Source: an uncultured delta proteobacterium
GTDB taxonomy: Bacteria > Desulfobacterota > Binatia > UBA9968
Assembly: GCA_963804165.1 (NCBI GenBank)
Contig: CAWDPO010000020.1
Location: 27,291-91,290, forward strand
Reading direction: 5' to 3'
DNA length: 64,000 nt
Shown here piece by piece: positions 1 through 64,000 of the stretch. Under the pieces are notes generated by a model that saw only the letters and a program-made list of their open reading frames with translations, was not told the DNA's origin and did not search any database. Position 1 is the stretch's first letter. Every line of letters begins with the position of its first letter. A program made the translations under genes and the position numbers.

Positions 1-198
1 CGGAATATTCGTCAATTCATCGAGAAGGGGCAAAGGGTGAAAGTCTCGGTTTTCTTCCGCGGGCGAGAAATCACCCATCCCGAGCTAGGCCGCCAGATGC
101 TTCGAGGGGTGGTCGTTCAGGTCCAAGATATCGCCAAACTCGATATTGAACCTCGTCTCGAGGGACGAAGCATGGCGATGTTGTTGACGCCCAAGTAG
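1..198 (+). CDS. infC: Translation initiation factor IF-3, 3' part (truncated by window edge)
   Basis: Frame 1 reads ...GQRVKVSVFFRGREITHPELG...EPRLEGRSMAMLLTPK*; directly upstream of rpmI-rplT. Confidence 0.95.
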   Translation, partial: RNIRQFIEKGQRVKVSVFFRGREITHPELGRQMLRGVVVQVQDIAKLDIEPRLEGRSMAMLLTPK

Positions 199-243
199 CG
201 TCAGGCAACGATTTTGCGAAAGATCAACCTCAAGGAGTGCACA

Positions 244-441
244 GTGCCAAAAATCAGAACCAACAAATCCGCAGCCAAACGGTTTCGTGTCACGGGAAGC
301 GGAAAGATCAAACGCAACAAGGGATATAAACGTCATATTCTCTCGAGCAAGAACAAAAAACGCAAAAGACATTTGCGCCAGGCGACTACGGTCGCCGCGG
401 TGGAAGCAAAGAACATTCGCAAACTTATACCTTATAAGTAA
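244..441 (+). CDS. rpmI: 50S ribosomal protein L35
   Basis: GTG start after AAGGAG; [24 protein letters not shown]. Confidence 0.97.
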
Positions 442-529
442 GCAAGACTGAGGACTGAATCACGAGAGCTGAGTACGGAGGCGTGTTCTATCCTATCAGT
501 CAGCGCTAACTCAGGAAGGAGTTTTTCCA

Positions 530-889
530 GTGCCCAGAGCTAAAGGTGGAAGCAAATCGCGGCAGAGACGCAAGAAGATCATGAAGCTTGCCAAAGGCTA
601 CGTCGGTGGCCGAGGACGCTTATATCGGTCGGCGCGGGAGACGGTGGAGCGAGCGTTGACGTTTGCTTACCGGGACCGGCGGATCAAGAAAAGAACGTTC
701 CGCGGTCTATGGATCACCCGCATCGGCGCGGCGGCGAAAATCAACGGTCTCTCCTACAGCCAATTGATCAAGGGGCTCAAGCAAGCCGGTGTGGAGCTGG
801 ACCGTAAGATCCTGGCCGAGATTGCGGTGGCAGATATGTCGGCTTTCGGCCAGATCGCCCAGACCGCGAAATCCCACTTGGGCGCTTAA
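530..889 (+). CDS. rplT: 50S ribosomal protein L20
   Basis: MPRAKGG...AYRDRR.KKR.FR.LWITRI; operon context. Confidence 0.98.
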
Positions 890-910
890 GCGATCGAGTA
901 TTGCAGTCGA

Positions 911-1951
911 ATGAACGATTCCGTGGAAACCCTCCAGGGAGAGGTTCTCGCTCGCATTCGGCAAGCCAAGTCGGAGAAAGAGCTGGAACAGATCCGGGTC
1001 GAGGTTTTAGGCCGCAGTGGCAGCGTTACGCTGCGGCTCCGCGGGCTCAAAGATTTGCCGGGAGAAGAGCGACGGCGCGCCGGAGAGCAGCTCAATCAGT
1101 TGCGCCGCGCTCTCGAACAGCGTTTGAACGAACAGCTTGGCGCGGTCAAGCAGCAGGCTAAATCGCAGGCGCTAAAAGAAGAGCGCGTCGACATCACTCT
1201 CCCCGGAACGCGTCGGGCGAGGGGAAGCGCTCATCCGATCACACTCGTTACCGACGAGATCATCGATATCTTCTGGGGCATGGGCTTTGAGATCGCCCGC
1301 GGCCCCGATATCGAGGATGACTATCATAATTTCGAAGCGCTTAACTTTCCCAAAGATCATCCGGCGCGGGATATGCAGGATACGATCTTTGTGTCGAATA
1401 ACCGGTTGTTGCGAACCCACACGTCGCCGGTGCAGATCCGCACCATGGAAGACCGCAAGCCACCGCTTCAAGTGATCGTGCCCGGGGCAGTCTACCGTCA
1501 CGATGACGATGCGACGCATTCACCGATGTTCCATCAGGTGGAAGGATTCATGGTCGACCTGGCCATCGCCTTCTCCGATCTTAAGGGCGTGTTGACGCAT
1601 TTCTTGCGGCAAATTTTCGATCGCGACGCGGGTGTTAGGTTTCGGCCGAGCTTTTTTCCTTTTACCGAACCAAGCGCAGAAATCGATATTCAATGTGTGA
1701 TCTGCGGCGGGAGTGGAACGCTGCGGGATGGGCAGTCATGCCGCGTTTGCAAGACTTCGGGCTGGTTGGAAATTCTCGGCGCCGGTATGATTGATCCCGC
1801 GGTTTTTGAGTTCGTCGGCTATGATCCGGAAAAGGTCTCGGGCTTCGCATTCGGGATGGGTGTCGAGCGGATCGCCATGCTCAAATACGGGATCGACGAC
1901 ATTCGCCTGTTTTTTCAAAATGACCTGAGGTTCTTACGGCAATTCGCTTGA
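911..1951 (+). CDS. pheS: Phenylalanine-tRNA ligase alpha subunit
   Basis: HPARDMQDT, LLRTHTSPVQ, FRPSFFPFTEPS, GFAFGMGVER; CxxC...CxxC insertion. Confidence 0.98.
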   Translation: MNDSVETLQGEVLARIRQAKSEKELEQIRVEVLGRSGSVTLRLRGLKDLPGEERRRAGEQLNQLRRALEQRLNEQLGAVKQQAKSQALKEERVDITLPGTRRARGSAHPITLVTDEIIDIFWGMGFEIARGPDIEDDYHNFEALNFPKDHPARDMQDTIFVSNNRLLRTHTSPVQIRTMEDRKPPLQVIVPGAVYRHDDDATHSPMFHQVEGFMVDLAIAFSDLKGVLTHFLRQIFDRDAGVRFRPSFFPFTEPSAEIDIQCVICGGSGTLRDGQSCRVCKTSGWLEILGAGMIDPAVFEFVGYDPEKVSGFAFGMGVERIAMLKYGIDDIRLFFQNDLRFLRQFA

Positions 1952-2021
1952 GTGTGCGAAAAATGGAGTATTGGATACCAAGATCATCAGTCCGATAGTT
2001 CCAACATTCCATCTCAATTCT

Positions 2022-4106
2022 ATGAAGGTGACTTTCAACTGGCTTAAAGAATTTGTCGATTTCACGGGCGCACCTGATGATCTCGCCAGGTTGCTCACCA
2101 TGGCGGGCCTCGAGGTGGAGTCGCAAGCTGCGCTGCGCGAGCCGGAATCCAATCGCGATGATTGGGTGCTCGAAATCGCTGTGACGCCGAACCGCGGCGA
2201 CTGCTTGGGGATCATCGGGATCGCGCGGGAAGTCGCCGCTTTGACCGGAGCAAAGCTCAAAGACGTGCCGTCGAGTGCAACTAGGAAGGATTCCAGCATC
2301 AACAAACGCATCGCTCTAAAGATTGACGACGCCGGACTCTGCACGCGCTATTCGGCGCGCATCGTGGACGAACTCAAAGTCGCGGCGTCGCCGTCTTGGC
2401 TGTGCTGCCGATTGGAAGCTTGCGGCATCCGCGCCATTAATAGCGTCGTCGACGCGACCAACTACGTTATGCTCGAAACCGGCCAGCCGCTGCACGCCTT
2501 CGACCTAGACCGGTTGCCGACGAAAAGGATCATTGTCCGCGCGGCCAAAACGATTAAAAAATTTATCACGCTCGACGGCGTTGAGCGTGAATTGATGCCC
2601 GAAGATTTACTTATTTGCGATGGCGATATGCCCATCGCTCTTGCCGGCGTCATGGGGGGGATGGATTCCGAGGTGCGCGACACGACGCGCTCGATTCTGC
2701 TCGAAAGCGCGAACTTCGCGCCGTCCAGTATTCGGCGTACGGCTAAGCGCCTGGTGTTGCACAGCGAGGCATCGCACCGTTTCGAGCGCGGTGTCGATCC
2801 CGATGCAACGATCCGGGCGTTGGACCGGGCCGTATGGTTGATTAAGGAGATTGCCGGAGGGAGTGTATTGGCGGGCGCAGCCGATTGTTATCCCGTCAAG
2901 GCTAAACCCATGACGCTTCGACTGCGCGAGGAGCGCGTTGAAAGACTCCTCGGCGTTCGCTTCGAACTCAAGCAAGCTGAGAAATTGTTTGCAGCCCTTG
3001 GATTGAAGTCCGAGCGACAGGGGAGAGCGCCAAGCCTGCGAGTCCGTGTGCCGACAAACCGTGCCGACCTTACGCGCGAAGCTGATTTGATCGAAGAGTT
3101 GGCGCGTCTTCGCGGCTACGATAAGATTCCGACCACGTTGCCGCTAACGAGAATCGCAGGGAGTAGTATCGATCCCCGTTTGGCTTGGGAAAGAAAACTG
3201 CGCGCCCTTTTGAGCGGAGAAGGCTTGAGCGAGGTCATCAATCTGCCGTTCACGTCAGAAAAATTGAATCGAAATCTCACCGGTCCGTGGCAGCCCGCGG
3301 CTTCGGCGGTGGTGGTGCTAAATCCCCTGGCGAAAGAAAACGCGGAGATGCGCCACAGTCTGATTCCCGGACTGATCGATAATTTGCGACTCAATCTTAC
3401 TCACAAGCTGAAAAGCTTTCATGGGTATCAACTGGGGAAGGTATTTGGTTCGACGGCGGCCGGCGAAATAGATGAGCGGCAGTGCATCGCCGGGCTCTTG
3501 TACGGACCGCGACAGGTTCATGGTTTGCGTCTGGGCGAAGAGGTTTCGGTGGGATTTCTCCAATGCAAAGGGGTGATCGAAGCCATTCTGGAGCTTTTCC
3601 GTCTTGCCGAAAAGGCGTCTTGGTCCCGTGACGACTTGAGGTTTTTGCATCCAGGGAAATCGGCGGCGTTGCGGTGCGATCAATCTGCGTTGGGTTATAT
3701 GGGTGAGCTGCATCCCGATTTATCCGATGAACTTGACATTCCCGCATCCTGGGTGTTTGAACTTGACTTAGATAAACTGCTTGAGTATGCTCCGCGCCGA
3801 ATAGTGATGCAGACGCTTCCGCGTTTTCCGGCCGTCGAGCGGGACTTAGCCATAGTGGTCGATCGTGATTTTACCTCCCAACAAGTCATCAGTTGGATAA
3901 AGGACCTTGGCGAGTCTTTGATCGAGCACGTTGAAGTCTTCGATCAGTATCTCGGGGCGCCGATTCCAGAGGGTAAGAAGAGTTTGGCTTATAGAGTATC
4001 CTATCGCGCTGAAGATAAGACCCTGACCGACGCGGAGATCAATGGGCTTCACCAGAGACTAGTGAAACGGCTTCAGGATACATTCGGTGTGGAGCAACGC
4101 GGCTGA
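2022..4106 (+). CDS. pheT: Phenylalanine-tRNA ligase beta subunit (short form lacking the B2 OB-fold)
   Basis: MKVTFNWLKEFV start; TPNRGDCLG, ETGQPLHAFD, FERGVD, DLIEELAR, C-terminal FDX-ACB domain. Confidence 0.96.
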   Translation: MKVTFNWLKEFVDFTGAPDDLARLLTMAGLEVESQAALREPESNRDDWVLEIAVTPNRGDCLGIIGIAREVAALTGAKLKDVPSSATRKDSSINKRIALKIDDAGLCTRYSARIVDELKVAASPSWLCCRLEACGIRAINSVVDATNYVMLETGQPLHAFDLDRLPTKRIIVRAAKTIKKFITLDGVERELMPEDLLICDGDMPIALAGVMGGMDSEVRDTTRSILLESANFAPSSIRRTAKRLVLHSEASHRFERGVDPDATIRALDRAVWLIKEIAGGSVLAGAADCYPVKAKPMTLRLREERVERLLGVRFELKQAEKLFAALGLKSERQGRAPSLRVRVPTNRADLTREADLIEELARLRGYDKIPTTLPLTRIAGSSIDPRLAWERKLRALLSGEGLSEVINLPFTSEKLNRNLTGPWQPAASAVVVLNPLAKENAEMRHSLIPGLIDNLRLNLTHKLKSFHGYQLGKVFGSTAAGEIDERQCIAGLLYGPRQVHGLRLGEEVSVGFLQCKGVIEAILELFRLAEKASWSRDDLRFLHPGKSAALRCDQSALGYMGELHPDLSDELDIPASWVFELDLDKLLEYAPRRIVMQTLPRFPAVERDLAIVVDRDFTSQQVISWIKDLGESLIEHVEVFDQYLGAPIPEGKKSLAYRVSYRAEDKTLTDAEINGLHQRLVKRLQDTFGVEQRG

Positions 4107-4143
4107 TGTGCCATGACTGACTGTGCCACGGGAGAGGTGTAAT

Positions 4144-4467
4144 ATGACGAAAGCTGAAATTATCACCCGAATTTACGAAAAGGTTGGGTTTGCAAAAAAA
4201 GACGCCACAGATGTTGTCGAGGCGACATTCGACATCATTAAAGGCTGCTTGGAGCGAGGCGAAAAAGTAAAAATTTCCGGTTTTGGAAATTTTGTCGTCA
4301 ATACCAAACGCCCCCGGAAGGGACGCAACCCGCAAACCGGCGATGAGATCATCATCGTTGGCCGCAAGGTGCTGACGTTTAAAGCGAGCCAGATCATGAA
4401 AAAAAGCCTGAATGGTATTTCTTCGCCTTCGCCCGAGTCGGCGCCAAGCTCGTCCGCGTCGGAATAG
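4144..4467 (+). CDS. ihfA: Integration host factor alpha subunit
   Basis: MTKAEI...VKISGFGNF...RKGRNPQTG; follows pheT. Confidence 0.93.
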   Translation: MTKAEIITRIYEKVGFAKKDATDVVEATFDIIKGCLERGEKVKISGFGNFVVNTKRPRKGRNPQTGDEIIIVGRKVLTFKASQIMKKSLNGISSPSPESAPSSSASE

Positions 4468-4475
4468 GTCCGGCT

Positions 4476-4829
4476 ATGTCTCCGCGTTTGCCGGAAAAGA
4501 TCTATTTTAAGATCGGTGAAGTCAGCGAAATCGTCGGTGTCGAGCCCTACGTTTTGCGTTATTGGGAAACCGAGTTCGACCTGCTGAAACCCTCCAAGGC
4601 GCCGTCAAAACATCGGTTATATAAAAAACGCGACGTCGAGTTGCTGCTCGATATCAAGCGACTTCTTTACACCGATGGATTCACGATCGAAGGAGCGCGG
4701 AAAAAATTAAAAGAAGCCCGGAAAGAAGAAAAAGACCAACTTAAGCTGCCCCTCTCCGAGCAGAAATACCGAAGCGCTCTCGTGAAGCTAAAAAAAGACT
4801 TGGAATCAATGCGTCGATTGTTGTCCTAG
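4476..4829 (+). CDS. MerR-family HTH regulator (conserved ihfA-linked)
   Basis: YFKIGEVSEIVGVEPYVLRYWETEF...RLY; typical ihfA-merR-tRNA-Pro synteny. Confidence 0.92.
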   Translation: MSPRLPEKIYFKIGEVSEIVGVEPYVLRYWETEFDLLKPSKAPSKHRLYKKRDVELLLDIKRLLYTDGFTIEGARKKLKEARKEEKDQLKLPLSEQKYRSALVKLKKDLESMRRLLS

Positions 4830-4900
4830 GCGCGGTCGGCGCAGGCGCGACGGATGCCTATTTGCCGAGCTGACTCACCCCCAATCGAGCGGCCGTGAAA

Positions 4901-4929
4901 TTGATTTGACGCGCGGGGAATGCTAAATT
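4901..4929 (+). promoter_or_regulatory. Putative sigma70 promoter of tRNA-Pro
   Basis: TTGATT-17 nt-TAAATT with extended -10 TG. Confidence 0.5.
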
Positions 4930-4951
4930 TCGCCTACTTCCAAACCAACAT

Positions 4952-5028
4952 CGGGGCGTAGCGCAGCCTGGTAGCGCACACGCTTGGGGTGCGTGTGGTC
5001 ACCGGTTCAAATCCGGTCGCCCCGACCA
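4952..5028 (+). tRNA. tRNA-Pro (GGG)
   Basis: CGGGGCGTAGCGCAGCCTGGTAGCGCA...anticodon loop TTGGGGT...GGTTCAAATCC...CCCCGACCA, 77 nt with encoded CCA. Confidence 0.98.
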
Positions 5029-5289
5029 TTCATTGATCGAGTATGACCACTCAGCAACGTGAATCCAGCGAGTTTCAACTTCGCGGGGAATAGCCAGACG
5101 ATCGTTCGTAGCCGAGCGGCGGCGCCTTGCGTCGTTGTAACAAAAAAATCATTCGTGGACTTGTTCGCTGACTCACTGCGCGATGCCGATGCGGCGGGAC
5201 ATTGAAGCATTCACTGGGTTGCCCGACTTTGCGAGCATGGGCGGCGACTTCAAGAAAGTCTCTATCGGACGAATGCCCGTTCTCGGCGA

Positions 5290-7368
5290 CTACTGATCAG
5301 GCATCGGGTCGTCATCGGGAATCTGTTTCACTTCTTCAAGCCAGACGGTTGCTTCGCTATCGCTTGGTGCGCGGTAATCGCCACGTGGCGATAACGAGCC
5401 ACCGGACCCAACTTTAGGAGCGTTAGGAATGCAGCTCCGTTTATACTGACTCATCTGAAAAAACCGCCACACGAAGACGGACAGCCAGCGCTTGATGTCG
5501 GTGATGGTGTATTGATTACGTCTCCCTTCGGCAATATCGGGCCATTCGCCTAGCGTCCGATCCCGCCAAGCGCAATAGGCGAGGAAGGCGATCTTTGAGG
5601 GCAAGTAGCCGAAGCGCGCTGTGTAATAGAGATTGAAGTCTTGCAGCTCATAGGGACCGATCACATCCTCGGTTCTCTGAGCCGGTTGCTCGCCGTTGGG
5701 GTCGCTGGGGATCAGTTCCGGGCTAAACTCAGTTTCGAGGATGGAACGGAGGATCACGCTGGTTTGTTTGCCCAGTTGGTTTGTTTCAGCCACCCAGCGG
5801 ATGAGAAACTGAATGAGCGTTTTTGGCACGCTCGCGTTGACACTATAGTGGGACATGTGATCGCCCACGCCGTAGGTGCACCAGCCAAGCGCAAGTTCAC
5901 TGAGATCGCTGGTTCCCAACACCAAAGCTTGATGGAGGTTGGCAAGCCGGAACAGGTGGCTGGTTCGTTCTCCCGCCTGGACATTTTCAAAGGTCACGTC
6001 ATACACCGGGTCGCCGTTGGCATAGGGGTGATTGATGTCGCGGAGCATCTGCTCGCAGCTCGGGCGGATGTCCACTTCATGGGCGACACAGCCAATCGCT
6101 TCCATGAGCGCCTTGGCGTTTGTCAGAGTGCGTTGAGTGGTGGCGAAACCAGGCATCGTAAAGGTGAGCAGGTTGGACCGCGGCAGTCCCAGTAGATCCA
6201 ACGCGCGGGCAGCGACGATGAGCGCGTGGGTCGAATCGAGGCCGCCGGAGACACCGATCACGATCTTTGATAGGCGGGAACTCTGAAGTCGTTTCACCAG
6301 TCCTTGCACCTGAATGTTGTAGGCTTCGTAGCAGCGGCGGTCGCGTAACACCGGATCCGAAGGCACGTAGGGAAATCTTTCGATTTTGCGCCGGCACAAC
6401 AAGCGGCCCGTTCTTGGTAACTCGATGTCGAAACCGATTTTGCGAAATTGGCGCGGCACTTCGCGATAGTACTGGATGCTCTGACCGAAGCTGTTCTGCC
6501 GCATACGTTCCTGCGCAAGTCGTTCAAGGTCAAGTTCCGCTACGATGAGTTGGGAGTGGTAGCAGAATCTCTCGGACTCAGCGATCAGCGTGCCGTTTTC
6601 GTAAACCATGGCATGCCCGTCCCAGGCGAGATCGGTAGTTGATTCTCCGGGTCCGGCGGCGACGTAGAGATAAGAGGCAAGACAGCGAGCGGACTGATTC
6701 GCGACCAGCGCGTGGCGATATTCGTCCTTGCCGATGGTGATATTGGAGGCGGAAAGATTCAAAATCACTGTGGCGCCCGCCAGGGCGGCACTGGATGAGG
6801 GTGGAATAGGGACCCAGAGATCCTCGCAGATCTCCACAAAAAACGTCAACTGCGGCTGCGATTGGCACTGAAATAGGAGACGTTCGCCGAAAGGAATTTG
6901 CCGCTGATCCAGGACGTCGATGGCGCTGCTTAGCCCCGCCGATGCTGCGGCGAATTGGCGATACTCGTAGAACTCCCGATAATTGGGCAAGAATGTTTTA
7001 GGAACGATCCCCAATATCTTACCGTGAGACAGAACGATGGCGCAGTTGAATAGTAAATTGTCAACCTGCAGCGGCATGCCGACTACGGCGACTAAGTTCA
7101 AAATTTCGGAAGCTTTTAATACACGGCTCAGCGCTTCCAACGCGCCTTCCAGCAAGGCCTGCTGGTGAAATAAATCCTCGCATGAATACGCGGTCAGCCC
7201 CAATTCCGGAAAGAGCATGATAGCCGCCTTGTCGCGCTCAGCTCTTTCCATCAATTCGATAGTTCGGGCTTGGTTGAATGCTGGGTCCGCCACGCGCACT
7301 TCGGGTATTCCGACAGCAGTGCGAACAAAACCGTGACTATAAAGGTTGAAAAACTCGCCGTTCCTCAT
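5290..7368 (-). CDS. nadE: Glutamine-dependent NAD+ synthetase
   Basis: Nitrilase domain ([29 protein letters not shown]) plus SGGLDST synthetase motif; start at MRNGEFF assumed. Confidence 0.95.
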
Positions 7369-54453: not shown

Positions 54454-55071
54454 ATGATTCAGCTTTACACGTGGGGCACGCCCAACGGCAAAAAAGTTTC
54501 GATCATGCTCGAAGAGATCGGCATGCCCTACGAAGTTCATGCGATCAATATCGGCCAGGGGGACCAATTCAAGCCGGAATATCTGGCGATCAATCCGAAC
54601 AACAAGATCCCTTCGATCATCGACACCGACGGTCCGGGCGGCAAGCCGTTCACGCTGTTCGAGTCCGGCGCGATCTTGATGTACCTGGCGGAAAAGTCCG
54701 GCAAGATGTGGCCGGCGGACACGCGCCAGCGCTACCTGGTGATTCAGTGGCTGATGTTTCAGATGGGCGGCGTCGGGCCGATGTTCGGCCAGGCGAACTA
54801 TTTCTACCGACTCGAAGAAAAAGTTCCCTATGCGATCGAGCGCTATCATAAGGAATCACTCAGGCTGTATGGGGTACTGGACAAGGAATTGGCTCAGAGG
54901 GAATATCTGGCTGGCGAATATTCGATCGCCGATATCGCAACCTATACCTGGGTGTGGCGGCATGAAATGCATCACGTGAAATTGGAAGATTTTCCCAACG
55001 TGAAGCGCTGGTTCGATGTCATCTCGCAACGACCCGCGGTTCAGCGCGGGATGGAAATTCCGAAGCGATGA
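54454..55071 (+). CDS. Glutathione S-transferase (YfcG/YghU-like)
   Basis: TPNG, INPNNKIP, LFESGAIL, WLMFQMGGVGPMFGQ, YSIADIA. Confidence 0.93.
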   Translation: MIQLYTWGTPNGKKVSIMLEEIGMPYEVHAINIGQGDQFKPEYLAINPNNKIPSIIDTDGPGGKPFTLFESGAILMYLAEKSGKMWPADTRQRYLVIQWLMFQMGGVGPMFGQANYFYRLEEKVPYAIERYHKESLRLYGVLDKELAQREYLAGEYSIADIATYTWVWRHEMHHVKLEDFPNVKRWFDVISQRPAVQRGMEIPKR

Positions 55072-55216
55072 GCGGCCGGGTGGAACACTATTCTTTTGCT
55101 GGGTCGGTGTGTGACCTTGGCGCCGAGATGTAAATTTTAATATCGTCGTGAGTGCAACGAAGAATCGCGACTTCGCAACAGGACGATGATATACGTCGAC
55201 TGAAAGGAGCCTCGCC

Positions 55217-56603
55217 ATGACCGTCGCAGAAAAACCGCTCTACTATTTGTCGATTCATGAAGCGCAACAACTCATTAAGGACCGCAAACTTTCACCGGTC
55301 GACTTGACCCGCGCCGTTCTTGACCGCATTCAAGCCGTCGATGGCAAGCTGCACGCTTACATTAACTTGATGGCGGATGGCGCGATGCAGGAAGCGCGGG
55401 CCGCTGAGGTGGAGATTGCCAAAGGCAACTGGCGCGGGCCGATGCACGGCATCCCCATCGCGGTGAAAGATCAGCTGGACGTGGCCGGCGCGCCGGCGCG
55501 CATTCGCCAATTCACCCAAGGCGTAGGCGACGCGACGGCTGTGCGCAAACTGCGCGAGGCGGGCGCGATCATGATGGGCAAGCTGCATATGAGCAGCTTG
55601 CCAGATAGCGAACTGCCGTTGCCGCGCAATCCGTGGAACACGGAACATATCACCGGCGGATCGAGCACGGGCTCGGGCGCCGCCGTGGCCGGGGGGCTTT
55701 GTCTCGGCTCACTGGGCGAAGATACCGCGGGCTCGATTCGCAATCCGTCGGCCTTTTGCGGCCTCGCCGGCTTGAAAGCGACCTACGGGCGAGTAAGCCG
55801 GCACGGCTTGGCGCCGCTCAGTTGGTCGCTCGATCATTGCGGGCCGATGGCGCGGGTGGTCGAAGATCTCGCCTACATGCTCAACGCTATCGCCGGGCAT
55901 GATCCCAAAGATCCGACGTCGAGCAGCATGCCGATGACCGATTATACCGACGCGCTGCGCGAAGACGTTAAAGGCATGTCGATCGGCGTGCCGCGCGCGT
56001 ACATCGACGAATGCGCGCCGCGCACGGATCCGATCGTATTGAAACGCGTGGAAGAAGCCATTGGTGAGCTCAAATCGATGGGGGCGCGTATCGAAGAAGT
56101 CAAAATTCCCACGCTGCATCTGGCGACCATCGCTAACGCGGTGATCTACTACAATGAATTTTGGTCAGCCCATAAAAGCGACGCGGCGACGGTATTGAAA
56201 ACCGGCGCGGCGCAGCGGCGCGCGCGGATCTATTTGGGCTTGCTCACGGGTTCGGCGGATTATATTCAGGCGCAGCGTATCCGCAGCCGCTGCCGCGCCG
56301 AGCTTGCCGAGGTTTTCGCCAAAGTAGATTGCCTTGGCGCTGCCGAATCAGGCCGGGCCCGCGCCGCGCGTCAAAGACGTCGGGCCCATCGATACTTTAT
56401 TCAAGCATGTCGTGCCGGAGTATCACGGACCGTTCAATTTAACCGGCCTGCCGACGCTGTCGGTGCCGTGCGGTTTTTCGGATAATCAGTTGCCGATCGC
56501 ACTGCAGCTGGTCGGCAAACCATTTGACGAGTCGACGGTGCTGCGCGCGGGTTATACCTACCAGCAGCATATGAAATGGTTCGAACGGAGACCGGCGATT
56601 TAG
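55217..56603 (+). CDS. Amidase-signature enzyme (one frameshift near 56335)
   Basis: IAVKD, GGSSTGS, DTAGSIRNP; C-terminus NLTGLP.LSVPCGF in the next frame. Confidence 0.85.
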
Positions 56604-56619
56604 GGATGACGAACGTCGG

Positions 56620-56690
56620 TTCAAGGGTTCAAGGTTCAAAGTTCAAAGTTTTCCGGGCAGAAAGAGTTCAAGTCGTTCAAAACGTTCAAG
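56620..56690. repeat. Degenerate GTTCAA(G/A) short tandem repeats (also at about 36576-36605)
   Basis: GTTCAAGG GTTCAAG GTTCAAA GTTCAAA... Confidence 0.6.
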
Positions 56691-56708
56691 GGAAGGAAAA
56701 AAACGATC

Positions 56709-57052
56709 ATGGAGATACAACGAATCAACCCGCGCGAATGGAATTGCAGCGCTGCTGTTTTTGGTGATCTGGTTTTTCTTTCCGGCACGGTCGCCGATGA
56801 CAAATCGCTGGACATGAAAGGGCAGACGGCCGAGGTGCTGAAAAAGATCGACGCCGTTCTCGCCAAGGCGGGCACAAACAAGTCGCGCATCTTGAGCGCG
56901 ACCGTCTACATGGCCGACGCTGGGTTAAAAGACGAGATGAATGCAGCCTGGATGGCGTGGGTCGATCGGTCCAATCTGCCGACCCGTACGGCGGTGGGCG
57001 CCGTGCTCACTCCCGGGACCCCGTCGAGATCACGGTCTGCGCCGCCAAGTGA
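56709..57052 (+). CDS. RidA/YoaB-family protein (frameshift near 57020)
   Basis: VFLSG.VA, QT.EVL.KID..L..AGT, EMNAAW..W; VEITVCAAK* in a shifted frame. Confidence 0.85.
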
Positions 57053-57282
57053 GCGGCGCGATCCCTTCCCTCGCGGAAACTCGCCAATCCTCGGACCGTA
57101 CGCTTCGATCAGCGCTAAATCCCTCTAGCTCGGCGCCTTTAAACCCGACTAGAGCCGGGCTTGCTATTCACCATGTTTTTTACTATGAACTTGACCCCAA
57201 TATCCGAGGCTGTTCACCTATGGCAAAACTGGAAAGGACTATTCGAGAGTCTAAAGGATAACCCGTAGAGGACTGGTAGCAT

Positions 57283-57474
57283 ATGCCCGAACAACTGCTG
57301 ACGCTGGAACAAGTTGCCGAGTATCTCAATGTCGATAAATTCACCGTGTATCGCTTGTTGGCGGATAAAGAACTGCCGGCGTTCAAGGTGGGAAATCAGT
57401 GGCGCTTCAAAAGAAAGATGATTGAGAATTGGCTGATGAAGAACTCCAACGTCAGACGCAAAGATACCCAGTAA
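57283..57474 (+). CDS. Excisionase-like HTH_17 DNA-binding protein
   Basis: LLTLEQVAEYLNV...TVYRL....LPAFKVGNQWRF. Confidence 0.88.
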   Translation: MPEQLLTLEQVAEYLNVDKFTVYRLLADKELPAFKVGNQWRFKRKMIENWLMKNSNVRRKDTQ

Positions 57475-57524
57475 ACCCGCGCACTCTTATCGTTCCAGCT
57501 GTCGAGCACGCGACAAGTTTTTAT

Positions 57525-57911
57525 TCACTCCGCTTCTCTGCACAGCGATTCAATATTGTAACCGTCGGGATCGAGGACGAAGGCGCCATAATAATCGGTG
57601 CTATATTGCGGCCGTAATCCCGGTTCGCCGTTGCTTTGCCCGCCCGCCGCGATAGCGGTGCGATAAAAATCCTCGACCAGCGTCCGTTTGGTAACGAGAA
57701 AAGCGACATGCGTGCTCGCCAGGCTGGGCGTGCCCTGGTAAAGCCATAGGTCGGCGCGCGCCGGCTCGCCGAATCCCGCGCTCGGCGTCGGCCGCGTCGA
57801 CGTCACGCCATACTCACGGAGCATTTCGTAGCCGATGGGTTTGAGCGCTGTGGTGTAAAACTTCTTGCTTCTCTCGATGTCGCTGACTTGCAGGCCGACG
57901 TGGGCGATCAT
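57525..57911 (-). CDS. VOC/glyoxalase-family protein (the nucleotide text may carry a small lesion near 57620)
   Basis: MIAHVGLQVSDIERSKKFY, HVAF, YYGAFVLDPDG.NIE. Confidence 0.85.
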   Translation of the reverse strand: MIAHVGLQVSDIERSKKFYTTALKPIGYEMLREYGVTSTRPTPSAGFGEPARADLWLYQGTPSLASTHVAFLVTKRTLVEDFYRTAIAAGGQSNGEPGLRPQYSTDYYGAFVLDPDGYNIESLCREAE

Positions 57912-58050
57912 GGAGTACCGCTTTTGTTTTTCCCATAATGAGACTGTGTCGCAGTGTGCACGATCATACGGATGTCATGCTGATTAATATGAAAGCGATG
58001 GAATCCACAGCGTCAGTGACTAGACTGGCGGGTGAAGGAGGAAATCGCAA

Positions 58051-59093
58051 ATGGAATACATTGCATTGGATGTTCACAAGCACTACAGCTGGGCGCGAGT
58101 GGAAAACGACAAGGGCGATAAGCTCTATGAGTGCAAACTCGCGCACGTTGGTGGAACCATCGAGAACTTTACCAAGAAGTGGAATCCCGGAACTCCCGTG
58201 GCGGTGGAGACGGTTGGGAACTGGTACTGGGTAGTCGATGAGATCGAAGCTGGAAAAGGGAGTCCGCAACTGGTCAATGCACGCTTGGCCAAGCTGATGA
58301 TCGGCAGCATCAACAAGAGCGATAAGTTGGATGCCAAAGGAATGAACCGTTTGCAGAGGGCAGGAACCCTGCCGACGGTCTGGATTCCCCCGCCGCGGTG
58401 CGCGACGCTCGGGAAATGCCGCGCACCCGCATGGTGTTGAGCGATCAACACACCCAACTCAAGAATCGGATTCACGCCACTATAAGTAAGTACGGCTTTA
58501 AGGTGGACGGAATCAGCGACGCCTTTGGCAAGCAGGGACGACAGATCCTCGAAGGACTGCTGGCTAAACTGCCCCCTCATACCGGCGAAGCGCTGAAGTT
58601 GATGCTTGACGAACTCGATCATGTACAAGCCAATCTCAAGGTCATCGAAGCAAAGATGCAAGCAGCGTTTGCTCCCTGCCCCCAGACGACCTACTTGAAG
58701 AGTGAGCCGGGGGTCGGTGAAATGCTGGCGGTGGTGATTTGGACTGGAATTGGCACCATCGAACGCTTTGGCCGAGCCGAACAGTTGGCGAGCTATGCGG
58801 GACTGGTACCGCGAGAGAACTCCAATGGCGGCAAGATCCGCTACGGGCGGGTGCGCAAAGATGTGAACCTGTATCTCAAGTGGGCCTTCGTCGAGGCGGC
58901 CAACAGCGCGGTGCTCAACCGCGAGCGCTGCCAGTACCGACATATCAGCCGGCTGTATGAAAACGTCAAAGCCAGGCGCGGTCATGGCAAAGCGATTGTG
59001 GCGGTCGCCCGACACTTGGCCGAGGCGGCTTTCTGGGATGCTTAAGAAGGGAGAGTCCTGATCGGGAACCGATGTCGTCCACGCGGGGGCTAA
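58051..59093 (+). pseudogene. IS110 DEDD recombinase, frameshifted
   Basis: YIALDVHK, AVETVG, KSDKLDA; frameshifts near 58390 and 59035; ENSNGG instead of ENSSGG. Confidence 0.9.
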
Positions 59094-59280
59094 GCGCGTT
59101 TCGCTCATGAGCCAAACAAGGCTCGAATGCTGATTGCGACAGCCCTGTGGCATTTTCCTCTGCCGCTTAAGACGGCGAATAGATGAGTCCGATAACATCG
59201 GGTGCGCAGGACTACGGACGATATGAGTAAGTTTGTTCAAAACCTTTGACGGAATATCGATATGTGAATATCAGCCACCT
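59094..59280 (+). ncRNA. Putative bridge/seek RNA region of IS copy 1
   Basis: Conserved with 63794-63980; contains TTCGCTCA, ATGCTGA (target match) and ATAGATGA (donor match). Confidence 0.75.
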
Positions 59281-59301
59281 TGACAAAGCTTTCATAGATG
59301 A

Positions 59302-59372
59302 GCAATGCGAAGCATCTCGCATTTTTCAGGTGTGTCAAAGTCGAGATTCTTCGCCTTCGGCTCAGAATGACA
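59302..59372. repeat. Remainder of the REP doublet interrupted by IS copy 1
   Basis: GCAATGCGAAGCATCTC...GAGATTCTTCGCCTTCGGCTCAGAATGACA. Confidence 0.8.
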
Positions 59373-59514
59373 TTAGAGCGCAGTCTCAAACGGTGGGCGA
59401 AGATGAATTCAGCGTTGAAACGGCGGAGCGGTGGGTGCACAAAGCCGCTGCTTTTGATTTCGTCCAAAACACGTCCAATGGTTCCTTCGCTCAGTAGGCG
59501 CTCGACTGGATTCT

Positions 59515-60504
59515 CTAAATGAACGTAGCGTCGAGGATTGTTTCCGGCTTCAACGTCGAGAGCTTGGGATTGGTTCGCGACAGGATAGAGTAAATCTTTT
59601 GCAAGCCTTCAGGTTTAGGCCTCAAGTCGTTGCTGTAGGCTGCGACCATCGCGTGGTAGCCGGTTTCTGCATCTTCCACGCGGTTAAGCCGGAGATGTTT
59701 AGCCATCGTTTTTAGGACAACCGGTTTGTTTTCCGGTTTTTGAAAGAACCGCAGCGCATCAATGGTTCCCTTGAGCAACGCTTCGTAGGTCTTTGCCTCC
59801 TGATGCGCCGCGGTTTTCCTGACCACCAAGGACGAGCCGACGTAGGGAATCGGCGCCCGGCTTAAATCGAGCAGAAGCGTGTAGCCTTTTTTCTTGAGCG
59901 GCGCGCTGAAGGTCGAGCCCATCCAGGACGCTTGAGCGCGGCCGGTTTCGAGAGCTTGGATGCGCGAGGGCTGATCACCAAGAACGATGAACCGGATGTT
60001 GTCGCGGTCCGAATCGAGGCCGAGGTAATCCAGAGCCAGCATATTGTTCGCCCAACCGCCGCCGCCGATACTTTGAATCGCGACCAATTTACCCTTAAGA
60101 TCCTCGGGCTTTTTGAACTCCGGGCGCGCCATGAAGTCCCCTTCGGGGCGTTGGAACAACGCCCCGATGATCACGACATCCAACCCTCCGGCGGCGAGAT
60201 TCAAAACGGCGTTGGAGCTGGTGAGAACCGCGTTCACATCACCGGAAACCAACGCAGACGCCGCGAGCGATCCAACCCGCATGTAGATGACCTCGACGTT
60301 AAGACCGTGCTTGCGGTAAAAGCCTTGCTCGACACCGACCCAGAGCACCGCCGGATTCTCGCCGCTGGTGCCGTTGGCGATGCGAAAGTTGGTGAGAGTT
60401 TGCGCTGCGGCTGAGCCAGTCAAAATAAAAATGACAAATGCCGTAACTGCCGGCTGAAATCTCTGGTGGAGCCGAGTTCTAATAAAATTGCCAACTGCTT
60501 TCAT
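59515..60504 (-). CDS. NMT1/THI5-like ABC substrate-binding protein (C-terminus may be disrupted)
   Basis: Signal peptide; G.YRKHGLNVE, ALVSGD, DLKGK.VA. Confidence 0.8.
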   Translation of the reverse strand: MKAVGNFIRTRLHQRFQPAVTAFVIFILTGSAAAQTLTNFRIANGTSGENPAVLWVGVEQGFYRKHGLNVEVIYMRVGSLAASALVSGDVNAVLTSSNAVLNLAAGGLDVVIIGALFQRPEGDFMARPEFKKPEDLKGKLVAIQSIGGGGWANNMLALDYLGLDSDRDNIRFIVLGDQPSRIQALETGRAQASWMGSTFSAPLKKKGYTLLLDLSRAPIPYVGSSLVVRKTAAHQEAKTYEALLKGTIDALRFFQKPENKPVVLKTMAKHLRLNRVEDAETGYHAMVAAYSNDLRPKPEGLQKIYSILSRTNPKLSTLKPETILDATFI

Positions 60505-60610
60505 GCGGATCTCCTCGAATGATGTCCCGGTCAATTACGGGCCGGAGCCTAAATCATGACAGCGATGCCTGTCAAAGCGCCGATAATAACCGAGAGAGAA
60601 AAATTGCTCT

Positions 60611-61451
60611 TTATAGCTCCGACCACATCAGCCGGATGCCGACGAACACCAAAGCGAGCGCCAGGCCGCGTATAATCCATTTGCCGCCGACCCGATTGGA
60701 CAGACGCGCGCCCATTTGGGCGCCGAACAAGACGCCGATGGCGAGGATCGCCGTGCGCCGAATGCCATGGGCGAACACGCCATTGGCGACGTGCACGAGA
60801 GTACCGGTCAAGGCCATCACGGCGAGCACGAAGTGGGAAGTGGCGGTGGCGATGTGGACGGGAAAGTTCAACAGTCGAGATAGTGCGGACATGAATAAAC
60901 CCGCCGCCGACGCCCAGAGGCTCGATGCAAAGCCGACGAATATGCTGAGCACGATGCCGATCACCGGATTATACTCGTAGTGATAGCGCACGCCGTCCGC
61001 GTCGACGAAATCGCGAACTGTCCAGCGGCCGGCTTATTGGCAGAAGCGTGCGGACCCGATGGAGCTTGCGCGCGCGCGTGATCGTCTTTGGCCGAGACCC
61101 AAAGAAATGCACCTGTCACGATCATCAAGACGCCAAAGATGAGGTCAAAGGCGTAGCGTGGCACGTACGCGGTGGAAACCGCGCCGAGGACGCCCCGGGA
61201 ATCGTCGCGATTGCGAAGATGATGCCCGACTTGTAATCGACCCGTTTCATCCGGCTGTAGGCCCACGAGCCGGAGAGCGCATTAAAAAAGACCACGGCGA
61301 GCGAGATGCTCGTGATCAGCTCGGTATTTTCATTCGGGTAGACGAGGAGAAGTATGGGAACCAGGATGAAGCCGCCGCCGGCGCCGATCAAAGTTCCGAA
61401 GGCGCCGATCAGTAGACCGAGAGGAAGCAGCCAAAGGGAGTGATAAGGCAT
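60611..61451 (-). pseudogene. TauE/SafE-family membrane protein (frameshifted)
   Basis: GTLIGAGGGFILVP, NALSGS, ATATSHF, GAQMGA in different frames. Confidence 0.82.
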
Positions 61452-61563
61452 GATGCAGCTACAGGCATAAAACTACCTCGGCTTGTGTAATAGGTCGTGT
61501 GTAGCCGATCGAAAACTAGCATGAAAATTTTTCTGAGAAAATAGCCGGCGCGCGGATTTTGCT

Positions 61564-62650
61564 TCAATGAGTCGGCAAACCGTAGAAGCGCTCAGCATTC
61601 CGATAGCGTACGGCGTCCTTATCATCCTGTGTGAGTCGTTTATTTTCCTCCAGCTCTTCGAGCTCCGCTTTGCACGTGTCGTTATTCACTTCGTGGGGAA
61701 AATCTGAGGAGAAGATAAACGGTTTGTTGCCGACGACACTGACGGCGAAGGGTAAATAAGCTCGTCGCCTTCGACACCGACGTAAATCCGATCTTCGTCG
61801 ACATGGCGCTTGATGTAGTCGGTCACGGATTCCTTTTCACGGAGCTTCAAGAAGCGCCCGCGGGGGTCGTGCTGCACGTGGCTATTCCAGGCGCGCTCGA
61901 GACGCTCGATGCAGTTGACGAACCACCCGGCGCCGGCTTCCATGAAGCCGAAACGGACCTTCGGAATTTATCGAAGACACCGTTGAACAGAATGCCGGCG
62001 AAATTGACCATCTGGCCGAAGGGATGGCCGAGCGCATTCACCGGAGCATAGGGTGTCATGTCATCCAAACCCATGTGGTCTGCACGCCGCCGTGGATGCC
62101 GATGCAGCAGGCGAGACGGTTGGCTTCCTCGTAAATCGGCCAGTATTTTTCGTCGCCGAGATGATTCTGCGCGCCCATGACTCCCGTGCTCGGCAGCATG
62201 GCCCCGCAAAGCCCAGCTCTTTGACGATGCGGCGAAGCTCTTTCACCGCTTCCGCCGGATCTTGCAGCGGGATCAGGCCCAAAGCCTGAAAGCGTGAGCT
62301 CTTACTGAGATATTCGTCATGCATCCAGTCGTTATACGCGTGGGCCAGCTCGATCGCCCAGTCCAGGCTGACGATCCGCCCGAACGACAGTCCGTTGGTC
62401 GGATAGAGCACCGCGCTGGCAAGGCCGACGTCTTCCATGAAATCGATCCAGCCCTCGCGGCCGACTCTCGCAAAGGCGCCCGGCGGGAGAAAATGCGCAT
62501 TGGCCGAGTGCAAATGATCGTTGGGCGGATAGGGGCTGCGGCTCGAGCCAATCGGTCGCGATACTGTTCCGGCATGCGCGCCGCGATCGCCGAGTGATCT
62601 TCCACCACGTGGCCGTCGCCGTCGATGATTTTATGGTTCTTGGTGTTCAT
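61564..62650 (-). pseudogene. Amidohydrolase_2-family metalloenzyme (multiple frameshifts)
   Basis: IIDGDGHV, VLYPT, AYNDW, EAGAGW, SSDFPHE, NAERFY across frames. Confidence 0.82.
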
Positions 62651-62752
62651 GGGGTCTTTCCTTCTTCTTTCGAAGTGTCATTCTGATTAATATGAAAGCG
62701 ATGAAATCCGCAGCGTCGGTAGATAGACTGACGGCTGGAGGAGGAAATCGAA

Positions 62753-63793
62753 ATGGAATACGTCGCATTGGATGTTCATAAGCATTACACCTGGGCGCGG
62801 GTAGAAAATGACCAAGGCCAGAAGCTCTTTGAGTGTAAACTGGCGCATAGTCGAGGAACGATTAAGAACTTCACCAACAAGTGGAGTCCGGGAACCCCGA
62901 TGGCGGTCGAGACCGTGGGCAACTGGTACTGGGTAGTCGATGAGATCGAGGCGGGGAAAGGATCGCCGCAACTGGTCAACGCACGACTGGCCAAGCTGAT
63001 GATCGGCAGCGTGAACAAGAGCGACAAGCTCGATGCGAAGGGAATGAATCGTTTGCAGAGAGTCGGAACCCTGCCGACGGTGTGGATTGCGCCGTCTGCG
63101 GTTCGTGATGCCCGCGAGCTGCCGCGCACCCGCATGGTGCTCAGCAAGCAGAGAACCCAGTTCAAGAACCGTATTCACGCCACTCTGGAGAAGTACGGGC
63201 TCAAGGTCGACGGCGTCAGCGACGCCTTTGGCAAGCGGGGCCGACAGATCATCGAAGAGCTTTGCTCCAAGCTGCCACCGCACACCCAACAAGCGCTGCG
63301 ATTGATGCTCGACGAGCTCGACCATGTGCAGGCCAATCTCAAGACCATTGAAGGCCAAATGCGCCAAGCCTTTGCTCCCTGTGCCGAGACGACTTATTTG
63401 CAGAGCGAGCCAGGAGTGGGTGAGATGTTGGCGGTGGTGATCTGGACTGAGATCGGTACGATCGAGCGCTTTGGCCGAGCCGAGCAGCTGACGAGTTACG
63501 CGGGGCTGGTACCCCGGGAGAACTCCAGTGGCGGCAAGGTGCGCTACGGGCGGGTGAGAAAGGATGTGAATCTTTATCTGAAGTGGGCCTTTACCGAAGC
63601 GGCCAATAGCGCGGTGCTCAACCGCGAGCGCTGCGAGTACCGACACGTTGCCCGGCTGTATGAAAATGTCAAAGCCAGACGGGGGCACGGCAAAGCGATT
63701 GTGGCCGTGGCCCGACACTTGGCGGAGGCGAGTTTCTGGATGTTGAAAAAAGGAGAAAGCTATCGCGAACCGATGTCGTCCACGCAGGGCTAA
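62753..63793 (+). CDS. IS110 DEDD recombinase/transposase, intact
   Basis: YVALDVHK, AVETVG, KSDKLDA, YAGLVP.ENSSGG, KAIVAVARHL. Confidence 0.96.
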   Translation: MEYVALDVHKHYTWARVENDQGQKLFECKLAHSRGTIKNFTNKWSPGTPMAVETVGNWYWVVDEIEAGKGSPQLVNARLAKLMIGSVNKSDKLDAKGMNRLQRVGTLPTVWIAPSAVRDARELPRTRMVLSKQRTQFKNRIHATLEKYGLKVDGVSDAFGKRGRQIIEELCSKLPPHTQQALRLMLDELDHVQANLKTIEGQMRQAFAPCAETTYLQSEPGVGEMLAVVIWTEIGTIERFGRAEQLTSYAGLVPRENSSGGKVRYGRVRKDVNLYLKWAFTEAANSAVLNRERCEYRHVARLYENVKARRGHGKAIVAVARHLAEASFWMLKKGESYREPMSSTQG

Positions 63794-63980
63794 GCGCGCG
63801 CGGCTCATGGGTCCACTGAGACCCGAATTCTGATTGCGACAGCCCTGTGGCATTTTTCTCTGCCGCTTTAGACGGCGAATAGATGAGTCCGATAACATCG
63901 GGTACGCTTTGCCACGGACGATAAGTACTGGTGTATTCGAAACCATGAGAAGAAAAAACAATATGTGACTAACAGATACC
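63794..63980 (+). ncRNA. Putative bridge/seek RNA region of IS copy 2
   Basis: CGGCTCA, hairpin GGGTC/GACCC, ATTCTGA (target match), ATAGATGA (donor match). Confidence 0.78.
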
Positions 63981-64000
63981 TTGACAAAGCTTTCATAGAT

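Follow-up and report, generated by a model that had tools for sequence, protein, structure and literature searches.

Two sister IS1111-group elements with candidate bridge RNAs whose guides track one-base variants of a REP-like repeat

Two Elements Inserted in Variants of One Repeat

The stretch of DNA analyzed here (the window; 64,000 nucleotides (nt), positions 27291-91290 of contig C20) belongs to the assembly of an uncultured delta proteobacterium (7.5 Mb in 46 contigs; bin completeness 81%, contamination 5%), and near its downstream end it carries two insertion sequences (IS) of the IS1111 group of the IS110 family, referred to below as copy 1 (type A) and copy 2 (type B; Table 1). Both lie within hairpins resembling repetitive extragenic palindromes (REPs), and we consider it very probable that these paralogous elements are directed by their own RNA guides, each to a different one-base variant of the repeat, at a TG dinucleotide. 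An original prediction, made from the letters of the window, had proposed two IS110/IS1111 copies with guides of this kind; the family assignment and the paralogy hold, and one correction concerns copy 1, which is degenerate, with an open reading frame (ORF) that is broken as assembled.

The two elements can be aligned end to end, with 81% nt and 88% amino acid (aa) identity. Copy 1 opens with ATTAATATGAAAGC and closes with ...GCTTTCATAGA+TG, its target-side core TG occupying 57981-57982, while copy 2 has its target-side core at 62684-62685 and ends with the contig itself at window position 64000; complete siblings of copy 2 measure 1317 bp. In copy 2 the recombinase gene is preceded by a left end of 67 nt (62686-62752) and followed by a right end of about 208 nt (63794 to the end). 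The longer non-coding region thus lies downstream of the gene, as in the IS1111 group, and 9-bp inverted repeats are placed 5 nt inward of the element ends. Direct reading recovered in both copies every string quoted in the original prediction, including the left flanks gtcATGCTGA (from 57974, copy 1) and gtcATTCTGA (copy 2), the right junction ATAGATGA|GCAAT of copy 1 at 59300/59301, and the internal segment ATAGATGA, identical to the IS right end plus core, at 59179-59186 in copy 1 and 63879-63886 in copy 2.

Left and right flanks each correspond to one half of a REP-like hairpin, GTCAT-N-CTGAGC...GCGAAG-N'-ATCT, which occurs uninterrupted and with a complementary N/N' pair 160 times in the genome (N being C in 64 cases, T in 63, G in 32 and A in one). 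The empty copies include three compensatory stem variants (ATCCT/AGGAT, 64; ATTCT/AGAAT, 63; ATGCT/AGCAT, 32). A blastn search of the genome with the whole element returned 11 loci on 8 contigs, with no solo RNA copies lacking an element. Four of the loci are type A (copy 1 and copies on C41, C36 and C17; 99% identity) and seven are type B (copy 2, copies on C14, twice on C3 and on C17 at 99.6-99.7%, one on C30 at 96%, and a truncated one on C22). All four type A copies have the left flank GTCATGC+TG and six of the seven type B copies have GTCATTC+TG, the truncated C22 copy having ATTT+TG, so that the expected tracking of the REP variant by the guides (ATGC for type A, ATTC for type B) is seen throughout the genome; the split of the two types on the G/T site base has a genome-wide Fisher p of 0.0048. 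After ...ATAGA+TG the right flanks read AGCAATGCG (twice), AGCAAAGCG and AACGAAGTG in type A, and AGCCGCAGG (twice), AGCCGAAGG, AGCGTTAGC and AGCCCAGAC in type B. Beyond the REP halves the sequence is different at every site, and the copies therefore represent separate insertions.

Site preference extends into the loop of the repeat. Among the T-variant REPs, type B favors those with a loop beginning AGCCG (4/7 vs 2/61 others, Fisher p = 0.0006, with the copy 2 site counted as occupied and its flank taken from the empty allele described below), and type A is enriched in AGCAA loops, where 3/5 such sites are occupied vs 1/30 others (p = 0.006).

The commonest REP variant, with C, has no close resident paralogue. 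No further close paralogue directed at the ATCC REP came to light when this genome was searched for one; its other matches to the IS110 family (genes on C28, C26, C34, C6, C15, C12 and C18) are 25-40% identical to copy 2. ATCC-guided relatives occur in another genome (L010) and in metagenomes (12/46). Next to each of the two decayed type B copies, C30:69037-70337 and C22:28800-29683, a C-variant REP occurs in inverted orientation (GTCATCCTGAACGAAGTG when read on the opposite strand), so that both are sited in REP doublets; the C30 copy has no REP half as its right flank.

Empty Sites in the Same Assembly

Searching relatives with the left flank of copy 2 led to contig C25 of the same assembly, positions 1-6926 of which are collinear with window positions 54860-62686 (97-98.6% identity) and lack both elements. 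At the copy 1 site this contig reads GGATGTCATGCTG|AGCAATGCGAAGCATCTCGCATTTTTCA, the two window flanks joined (57982 directly to 59301), and at the copy 2 site it reads TTTCGAAGTGTCATTCTG|AGCCGCAGGCGAAGAATCTCG, with the empty-site junction GTCATTCTG|AGCCGCAGGCGAAGAATCTCG. Since the flanks are joined exactly, insertion was precise, with only TG at both junctions. The presence of occupied and empty versions in one assembly means that the insertions are polymorphic, in a population or between two near-identical regions; the bin is accordingly a mixture of strains or includes a duplication of recent date.

The empty allele also supplies the right flank of copy 2, which is cut off in the window, as AGCCGCAGG. 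The original prediction had foreseen a flank beginning GAGCCG beyond position 64000, where C20 ends; the IS-free allele starts with precisely these bases, as do three of five type B sibling copies, and its AGCCGCA agrees with the guide complement AGCCGCG at 6/7 positions. No other contig of the assembly opens with the expected REP half. The IS-free version contains, in addition, a repeat of about 420 nt (C25:2207-2631, vs window 57063-57085), 70-85% identical copies of which occur on many contigs; it includes ACGAACC-TA-GATGCCGG, close to the AACC+TG+GATGCCG target of L009-type relatives.

These data bear on a historical explanation, in which the lineages are inactive relics and the pattern reflects a few old events or duplications of an IS together with its flanks. 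Such a history would account for the broken or truncated state of copy 1 and of the C30 and C22 copies, and it draws on the small sample (10 sites) and on the fact that no expression was seen. It is at odds with the intact 346-aa ORF in 8 of the 11 copies (the exceptions being copy 1, C30 and C22), with identities of 99-99.7% among copies of one type, with REP loops that differ between sites within surroundings that differ at every site, and with the polymorphism of both insertions. We regard it as very improbable.

A Candidate RNA with a Covarying Target Loop

Each recombinase gene is followed by a candidate RNA of about 120 nt. RNAalifold was applied to 13 aligned downstream regions and the structure trimmed to 27 pairs, giving a consensus with a 9-bp closing stem, a conserved 4-bp stem, an internal loop that contains both target guides and a 5-bp apical hairpin, followed by two conserved hairpins flanking the ATAGATGAG segment. 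In this alignment 97.4% of cells are paired and 13 of the 27 pairs show double changes, a result equaled by 0/500 shuffles, while slid controls reached 36-42%. Double changes affect all nine pairs of the closing stem and three of the five in the apical hairpin; the donor-side hairpins are nearly invariant and therefore uninformative on structure. Covariation analysis of aligned non-coding regions, proposed as a check in the original prediction, supports the target loop, and the compensatory nature of the hairpin between the guides is visible in the window itself, where GAGCC/GGCTC (59109-13/59120-24) in copy 1 corresponds to GGGTC/GACCC (63809-13/63820-24) in copy 2 through two double pair changes.

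Two further pairings were considered and not adopted: a long-range pairing of CGTC (63777-80) with GATG of the donor guide, proposed by RNAalifold, because all of its pairs are invariant or changed on one side only, with no compensatory change, and a closing stem of the donor region, GTGGCA/TGCCAC, because it occurs in type B only. A permissive E-value scan of Rfam gave 0 matches in 57900-64000.

The left target guide comprises only 4 nt plus the core, and in copy 2 it is followed by AT (63833-63834), matching the first bases of the left end. An early caveat, that the right flank of copy 1 matches its guide weakly, stands: agreement extends to only 4/7 positions after TG.

Guides Track Flanks in Relatives and Metagenomes

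To extend these comparisons beyond a single genome, we drew on a scan of species-representative genomes that yielded 28 loci. Eleven with a downstream region were used (L009-L013, L015, L016, L018-L020, L031); those left out comprise ten distant loci at 25-30% identity (L022-L029, L032, L036), six cut by contig ends (L014, L017, L021, L033-L035) and one fragment (L030). The hosts are bins labeled Binatia, 'delta proteobacterium', Nitrospirota/Nitrospira, Chloroflexota and Planctomycetota. Several of the relatives occupy sites other than this REP: L015 (92% aa identity to type B) sits in the non-REP site GCCTC+TG+AGCAGGC and matches it perfectly with both guides, CCTC+TG and the complement of TG+AGCAGGC, L009 sits in AACC+TG+GATGCCG with both guides perfect, and L016 (53% aa identity) occupies GAAAC+TG+TCATAGG, compared with guides GAAAT and TCACAGC. 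In L010, guide and flank alike carry ATCC. At L015 the guide-flank matches are contiguous over 6 and 9 positions, and L030, from the same metagenome-assembled genome, preserves a fragment of the RNA region beside a left end in inverted orientation and may be a nested or rearranged copy.

With one site retained per distinct guide pair (nine redundant rows dropped), 10 independent lineages remain. Guide and flank agree at 37/40 positions in the left 4-mers (shuffled mean 24.0, 0/100000) and at 50/70 in the right 7-mers (shuffled mean 29.8, 15/100000), or at 47/70 if the worst type A and type B sites are taken (77/100000). Similarly, metagenome loci were collected by an exact conserved donor-region pattern, and 80 of the 98 matching stretches were analyzed. 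Forty-six of these have both a guide and a left flank, and in 40 of the 46 all positions of the left 4-mer match (ATGC guides 10/10, ATTC 15/16, ATCC 8/12, and others). The right 7-mers, in 53 unique pairs from 66 loci, match at 269/371 positions vs 174 when shuffled (0/20000), and for pairs starting with A, positions 3-7 of the right 7-mer match at 146/235 vs 92 (0/20000). The predicted tracking of targets by guides is thus borne out by permutation tests across genomic copies, other genomes and metagenomes.

Site choice could instead reside in the recombinase protein or in the shape of the REP hairpin, with the RNA-like matches arising as a by-product, for example from target sequence captured at imprecise excision. 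The hairpin context is common to all REP-targeting members, many of which have loose right-side matches, and a preprint describes ISPpu10 as requiring a target stem-loop besides RNA pairing (10.64898/2026.03.19.712850). Yet the matches do not simply reproduce the REP: they form two separate, opposite-sense strands around a covarying hairpin within a covarying stem, and close relatives with non-REP targets (L015, L009 and L016) match their flanks over 7-9 contiguous bases on either side. Moreover, types A and B carry different bases at the guide position that discriminates their sites, with proteins that are 88% identical. This alternative appears very improbable to us.

An artefact of a mixed or misassembled metagenome bin has still less to recommend it. 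The incompleteness and contamination of the bin, the two versions of the region and the indel errors of the assembly (see below) would all be compatible with one, whereas the same relation of element to flank recurs at 11 loci on 8 contigs here, at another 11 in other genomes and in 80 contigs from metagenomes, and the element is covered at 99% identity or more by short-read contigs of independent soil runs. We find this explanation hardly credible.

The TG Core and the Donor Guides

The original prediction had proposed a TGA core. In three relatives (L009, L016 and L031) TG is followed on the target side by other bases, and the two junctions do not agree in the base next to TG, which limits the shared core to TG. 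A second donor guide, described earlier as not clearly visible, was located at 63852-63860 in copy 2 and 59152-59160 in copy 1, where it covaries with the left end.

The left donor guide repeats the right end of the element, and where ATAGA has changed to AGAGA (L016 and L031) it has done so in right end and RNA alike. The right donor guide corresponds to 9 nt that lie directly 5' of the TGCCG hairpin and change along with the left end. The left end can be read in 71 loci, 49 of them unique; in these 49, T occupies position -6 in 20/21 elements with a left end starting ATTAAT, and A or G does so in 24/28 with one starting ATTATT (Fisher, 7e-9). Position -6 covaries with left-end base +5, and 0/13 other positions are associated. 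The pairing register that we propose would set -1 (C) opposite the core G and -2 (U) opposite left-end +1, leave -3 and -4 unpaired opposite TT at +2 and +3, and match -5 to -9 with +4 to +8. The right donor guide of this clade would pair with the left end around a fixed 2-nt gap adjacent to the core, unlike the layout of IS621. A canonical right donor guide, the reverse complement of TG+ATTAAT 5' of the TGCCG hairpin, is absent from this clade; it is present in L031 (TTAATCA) and L016 (ACCAACA vs the expected ACCATCA).

The AG that follows TG in the left donor guide matches the first bases of the REP right halves. This AG and the AT after the left target guide resemble the 2-nt 'handshake' idea put forward in PMC11208158; the few informative relatives show no covariation at them.

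The Recombinase and a Predicted Junction Promoter

The gene of copy 2 encodes an intact protein of 346 aa, and its earlier identification as an IS110-family DEDD/Ser recombinase is confirmed by domain searches: PF01548 (DEDD_Tnp_IS110) matches residues 4-148 (E 1.1e-12), PF02371 (Transposase_20) is also found (E 1e-20), and NF033542, 'IS110 family RNA-guided transposase', scores 228.9 bits against a cut-off of 140 over positions 1-342 of the 343-position model. Among solved structures the protein matches that of the IS621 transposase (E 1.5e-11, with the similarity concentrated in the C-terminal domain), with D91/D94 opposite the IS621 Asp pair D102/D105 and S259, within GLVPRENSSG, opposite S241, the Ser of ESG (residue names as in PMC11208158; chain numbering is these numbers + 2). 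From reading of the sequence, D7 and E53 are candidates for the further DEDD residues, and GLVPRENSSG fits the motif GL-P----SG given in PMC11187229. The description of copy 2 as a programmable recombinase may be apt on the basis of its family membership.

In copy 1 the gene is split and, relative to three intact 346-aa siblings, has one 1-nt deletion, three insertions of an extra G and about 11 substitutions. These indels could be errors of the long-read assembly, because such errors occur elsewhere in the window, and the true death of copy 1 is therefore uncertain. Short-read contigs from the independent soil runs add a G after 62549 and a C after 62750, and the neighboring minus-strand genes (60611-61451 and 61686-62650) are split into overlapping ORF pieces, which suggests homopolymer indel errors of the assembly and not real pseudogenes.

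Both elements have an outward -35 box in the right end, and the left end of copy 2 contains a -10 box (Table 1). Judged from the sequence, ends joined via one TG would give TTGACA-17-TAATAT, and this arrangement, or that with TATTAT, is found in 65/69 family members with both ends. The predicted junction promoter fits the circle-junction promoter of IS621 described in PMC11208160.

Table 1. Positions of the two elements, their insertion sites and their predicted functional parts in the window (empty cells, nothing recorded).
Feature	Position	Strand	Details or basis
Left half of G-variant REP (GTCATGC+TG), copy 1 site	57974..57982	+	right half AGCAATGCGAAGCATCTC from 59301
Copy 1 (type A), IS1111-group element	57983..59300	+	1318 bp as assembled
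Subterminal inverted repeat pair, copy 1	57988-57996 and 59288-59296		read directly
Recombinase gene, copy 1	58051..59045	+	split, 58051-58440 + 58398-59045; ORF list, sibling comparison
Bridge/seek RNA region, copy 1	59077..59205	+	predicted from sequence and covariation
Putative right target guide TTCGCTCA, copy 1	59100-59107	+	
Inter-guide hairpin, copy 1	59109-59124	+	
Putative left target guide ATGC+TG (+AT), copy 1	59127-59132	+	ATGCTGA at 59127-59133
Putative right donor guide ATTTTCCTC, copy 1	59152-59160	+	
Putative left donor guide ATAGA+TG, copy 1	59179-59185	+	
Outward -35 box TTGACA, copy 1 right end	59280-59285	+	
Left half of T-variant REP (GTCATTC+TG), copy 2 site	62677..62685	+	right half off contig
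Copy 2 (type B), IS1111-group element	62686..64000	+	contig stops at T of right-hand core TG
-10 box TAATAT, copy 2 left end	62688-62693		starts at third base
Left subterminal inverted repeat TATGAAAGC, copy 2	62691..62699	+	9 bp; read directly
Recombinase gene, copy 2	62753..63793	+	intact, 346 aa; ORF list, Pfam, NCBIfam, structure match
Target-binding loop, copy 2	63783..63849	+	covariation alignment, permutation tests
Closing stem P1, copy 2	63783-63791 with 63841-63849		5' arm overlaps stop codon
Stem P2, copy 2	63795-63798 with 63835-63838		
Putative right target guide, copy 2	63799-63807		complement of TG+AGCCGCG; CGGCTCA at 63801-63807
Hairpin P3, copy 2	63809-63813 with 63820-63824		
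Putative left target guide ATTC+TG, copy 2	63827-63832		ATTCTGA at 63827-63833
Donor-binding part, copy 2	63852..63902	+	
Putative right donor guide ATTTTTCTC, copy 2	63852-63860	+	covariation with left end
Donor hairpins, copy 2	63861-63877 and 63888-63902	+	
Putative left donor guide ATAGA+TG (+AG), copy 2	63879-63885	+	equals right end
Outward -35 box TTGACA, copy 2 right end	63981..63986	+	15 nt from tip
Right partner repeat GCTTTCATA, copy 2	63989-63997		9 bp; read directly

Proposed Mode of Site Selection

Family membership, an RNA structure upheld by covariation, guide-flank tracking and the empty sites are demonstrated by these analyses, and from them the following scheme can be proposed. 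Each element would encode a DEDD/serine recombinase together with a structured bridge RNA (seekRNA) that overlaps the stop codon of its gene. The 5' target strand of this RNA would pair with the top strand over TG and as many as about 7 nt beyond it on the right side of the insertion, and the 3' target strand, which has the same sense as TG and the 4 nt preceding it, would pair with the bottom strand. The joined ends of the element itself would be guided by a second region, in which ATAGA+TG corresponds to the right end and the 9-nt strand to the left end. By analogy with the published mechanism, the RNA would be expressed and pair with DNA, a circle carrying the junction promoter would form, and the elements would be active at present. 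The type A guide reads ATGC and that of type B reads ATTC, and the two would therefore insert into different one-base stem variants of the same REP. The idea of re-programmed paralogues partitioning REP variants is accordingly retained from the original prediction as far as the partition is concerned; the TGA core attached to it was wrong.

Several observations weigh against this scheme. On the target side, the left 4-mer of the site differs from the guide in 6/46 metagenome elements; three of these six exceptions are ATCC guides in ATTC sites, so a single mismatch or the use of a foreign RNA does occur. Matches on the right are often partial (4-5/7 in type A, 3/7 in the type B copy on C14), and several relatives from Nitrospirota match little beyond AGC on that side. 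The complement of the type A guide is AGCGAAA, yet the enrichment is in AGCAA loops, which needs a mismatch or a one-base bulge; as a speculation, a one-base bulge in the RNA would restore 5-6 matches. On the donor side, the right guide of the window copies pairs at only 6/9 positions in the proposed register. As for the RNA, a single-sequence fold is no better than shuffles (z = -1.27), though it reproduces the target loop, no plus-strand promoter was found in 62600-64000 in the integrated state, and no RNA was seen: contigs from two soil metatranscriptome runs cover only 62897-63158, with up to 18 differences, and none covers the non-coding region, which makes them uninformative. The recombinase gene of copy 1, finally, is broken as assembled. 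Set against the permutation and covariation results, these points leave RNA-guided selection of REP variants by each element, in our judgment, very probable.

A separate question is which element a given RNA serves. The donor ends are interchangeable and the donor guides nearly identical, and therefore either RNA could in principle insert either element. All of the readable insertions (10/10) are in the REP variant named by their own guide, for which the chance under random RNA use is 0.001. It is tempting, if still doubtful, to read this as a sign that the bridge RNA in nature may act almost only in cis, on its own copy. If it does, single-base retargeting lets sister elements divide a repeat family, with the G and T variants used and the commoner C variant free in this genome. 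The elements are candidates for bench characterization and could serve to test whether bridge RNAs act in cis.

Comparison with Known Systems

The mechanism considered here, by bridge RNA or seekRNA, was published in 2024, and the elements described add no new mechanism. Targeting of REPs by the IS110 family has also long been known, from IS621, ISPa11 and ISPpu9/10; Tobes and Pareja (2006) is cited on this subject.

Elements of the IS1111 type are described as having a downstream non-coding region, subterminal repeats of 7-17 bp, a transposase of 330-350 aa with the motif GL-P----S(t)G, and a seekRNA in which the top-strand match lies 5' of the bottom-strand match, the two overlapping in the target (Siddiquee et al., 2024; PMC11187229). 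Bridge RNAs have been predicted in the right end of 93% of IS1111 elements, with donor-binding nucleotides in a multiloop, an arrangement that recurs in the present elements, and their discovery was based on guide-target covariation over thousands of natural pairs (Durrant et al., 2024; PMC11208160).

Like IS621, as described in PMC11208160 and PMC11208158, the elements of the window combine two protein domains of the same kinds, in which the catalytic Asp pair and Ser align, with a dinucleotide core, REP targeting, a target loop whose left and right guides enclose a hairpin, and donor guides separate from it; a promoter rebuilt on the circle, as described for IS621, is predicted for them. The window elements differ in that the RNA lies in the right end (the left in IS621), the guide order is reversed, the donor guides lie between hairpins and not in a simple internal loop, the core is TG where that of IS621 is CT, and sequence similarity is low (the E-value given above). 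The left target guide has 4 nt, compared with a nine-base left target guide (LTG) including the core in IS621 (Hiraizumi/Durrant, 2024).

ISPpu9 and ISPpu10 of Pseudomonas putida, likewise members of the IS110 family, insert at one position of REP/intergenic hairpin repeats (PMC12288879; 10.64898/2026.03.19.712850), and for ISPpu9 an RNA gene downstream of the transposase is described, as is predicted here (PMC12288879). Their hosts and repeats are others, and the abstracts make no mention of a paralogue pair that splits repeat variants; a search of titles and abstracts found no published statement of such a pair.

The layout resembles that of the IS1111 elements with seekRNAs. The DEDD transposases of ISEc11, ISPa11, ISKpn4 and ISPst6, as described in PMC11187229, measure 330-350 aa and carry the GL-P----SG motif, like the protein of copy 2; the downstream non-coding region and subterminal inverted repeats are shared, and ISPa11 likewise targets REPs. 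The placement of the RNA downstream of the ORF, put forward in the original prediction, is upheld by a guide order and core overlap that match the seekRNAs of that description. Unlike these four, the present elements belong to a separate lineage, encountered here solely in soil and sediment bins of uncultured bacteria, and unlike the named IS1111 elements they have a TG core, a different REP and two paralogues in one genome that stand one guide base apart. They constitute a compact natural system from uncultured soil bacteria, with a 346-aa enzyme and a predicted RNA of about 120 nt, and their roughly 100 relatives with guide-flank pairs provide a natural table of tolerated and untolerated mismatches. 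Particular to this case are the sister pair separated by a single guide base with both empty sites in the same assembly, the TG core with a 4-nt left guide, and a mapped right donor guide that allows all four guides to be placed.

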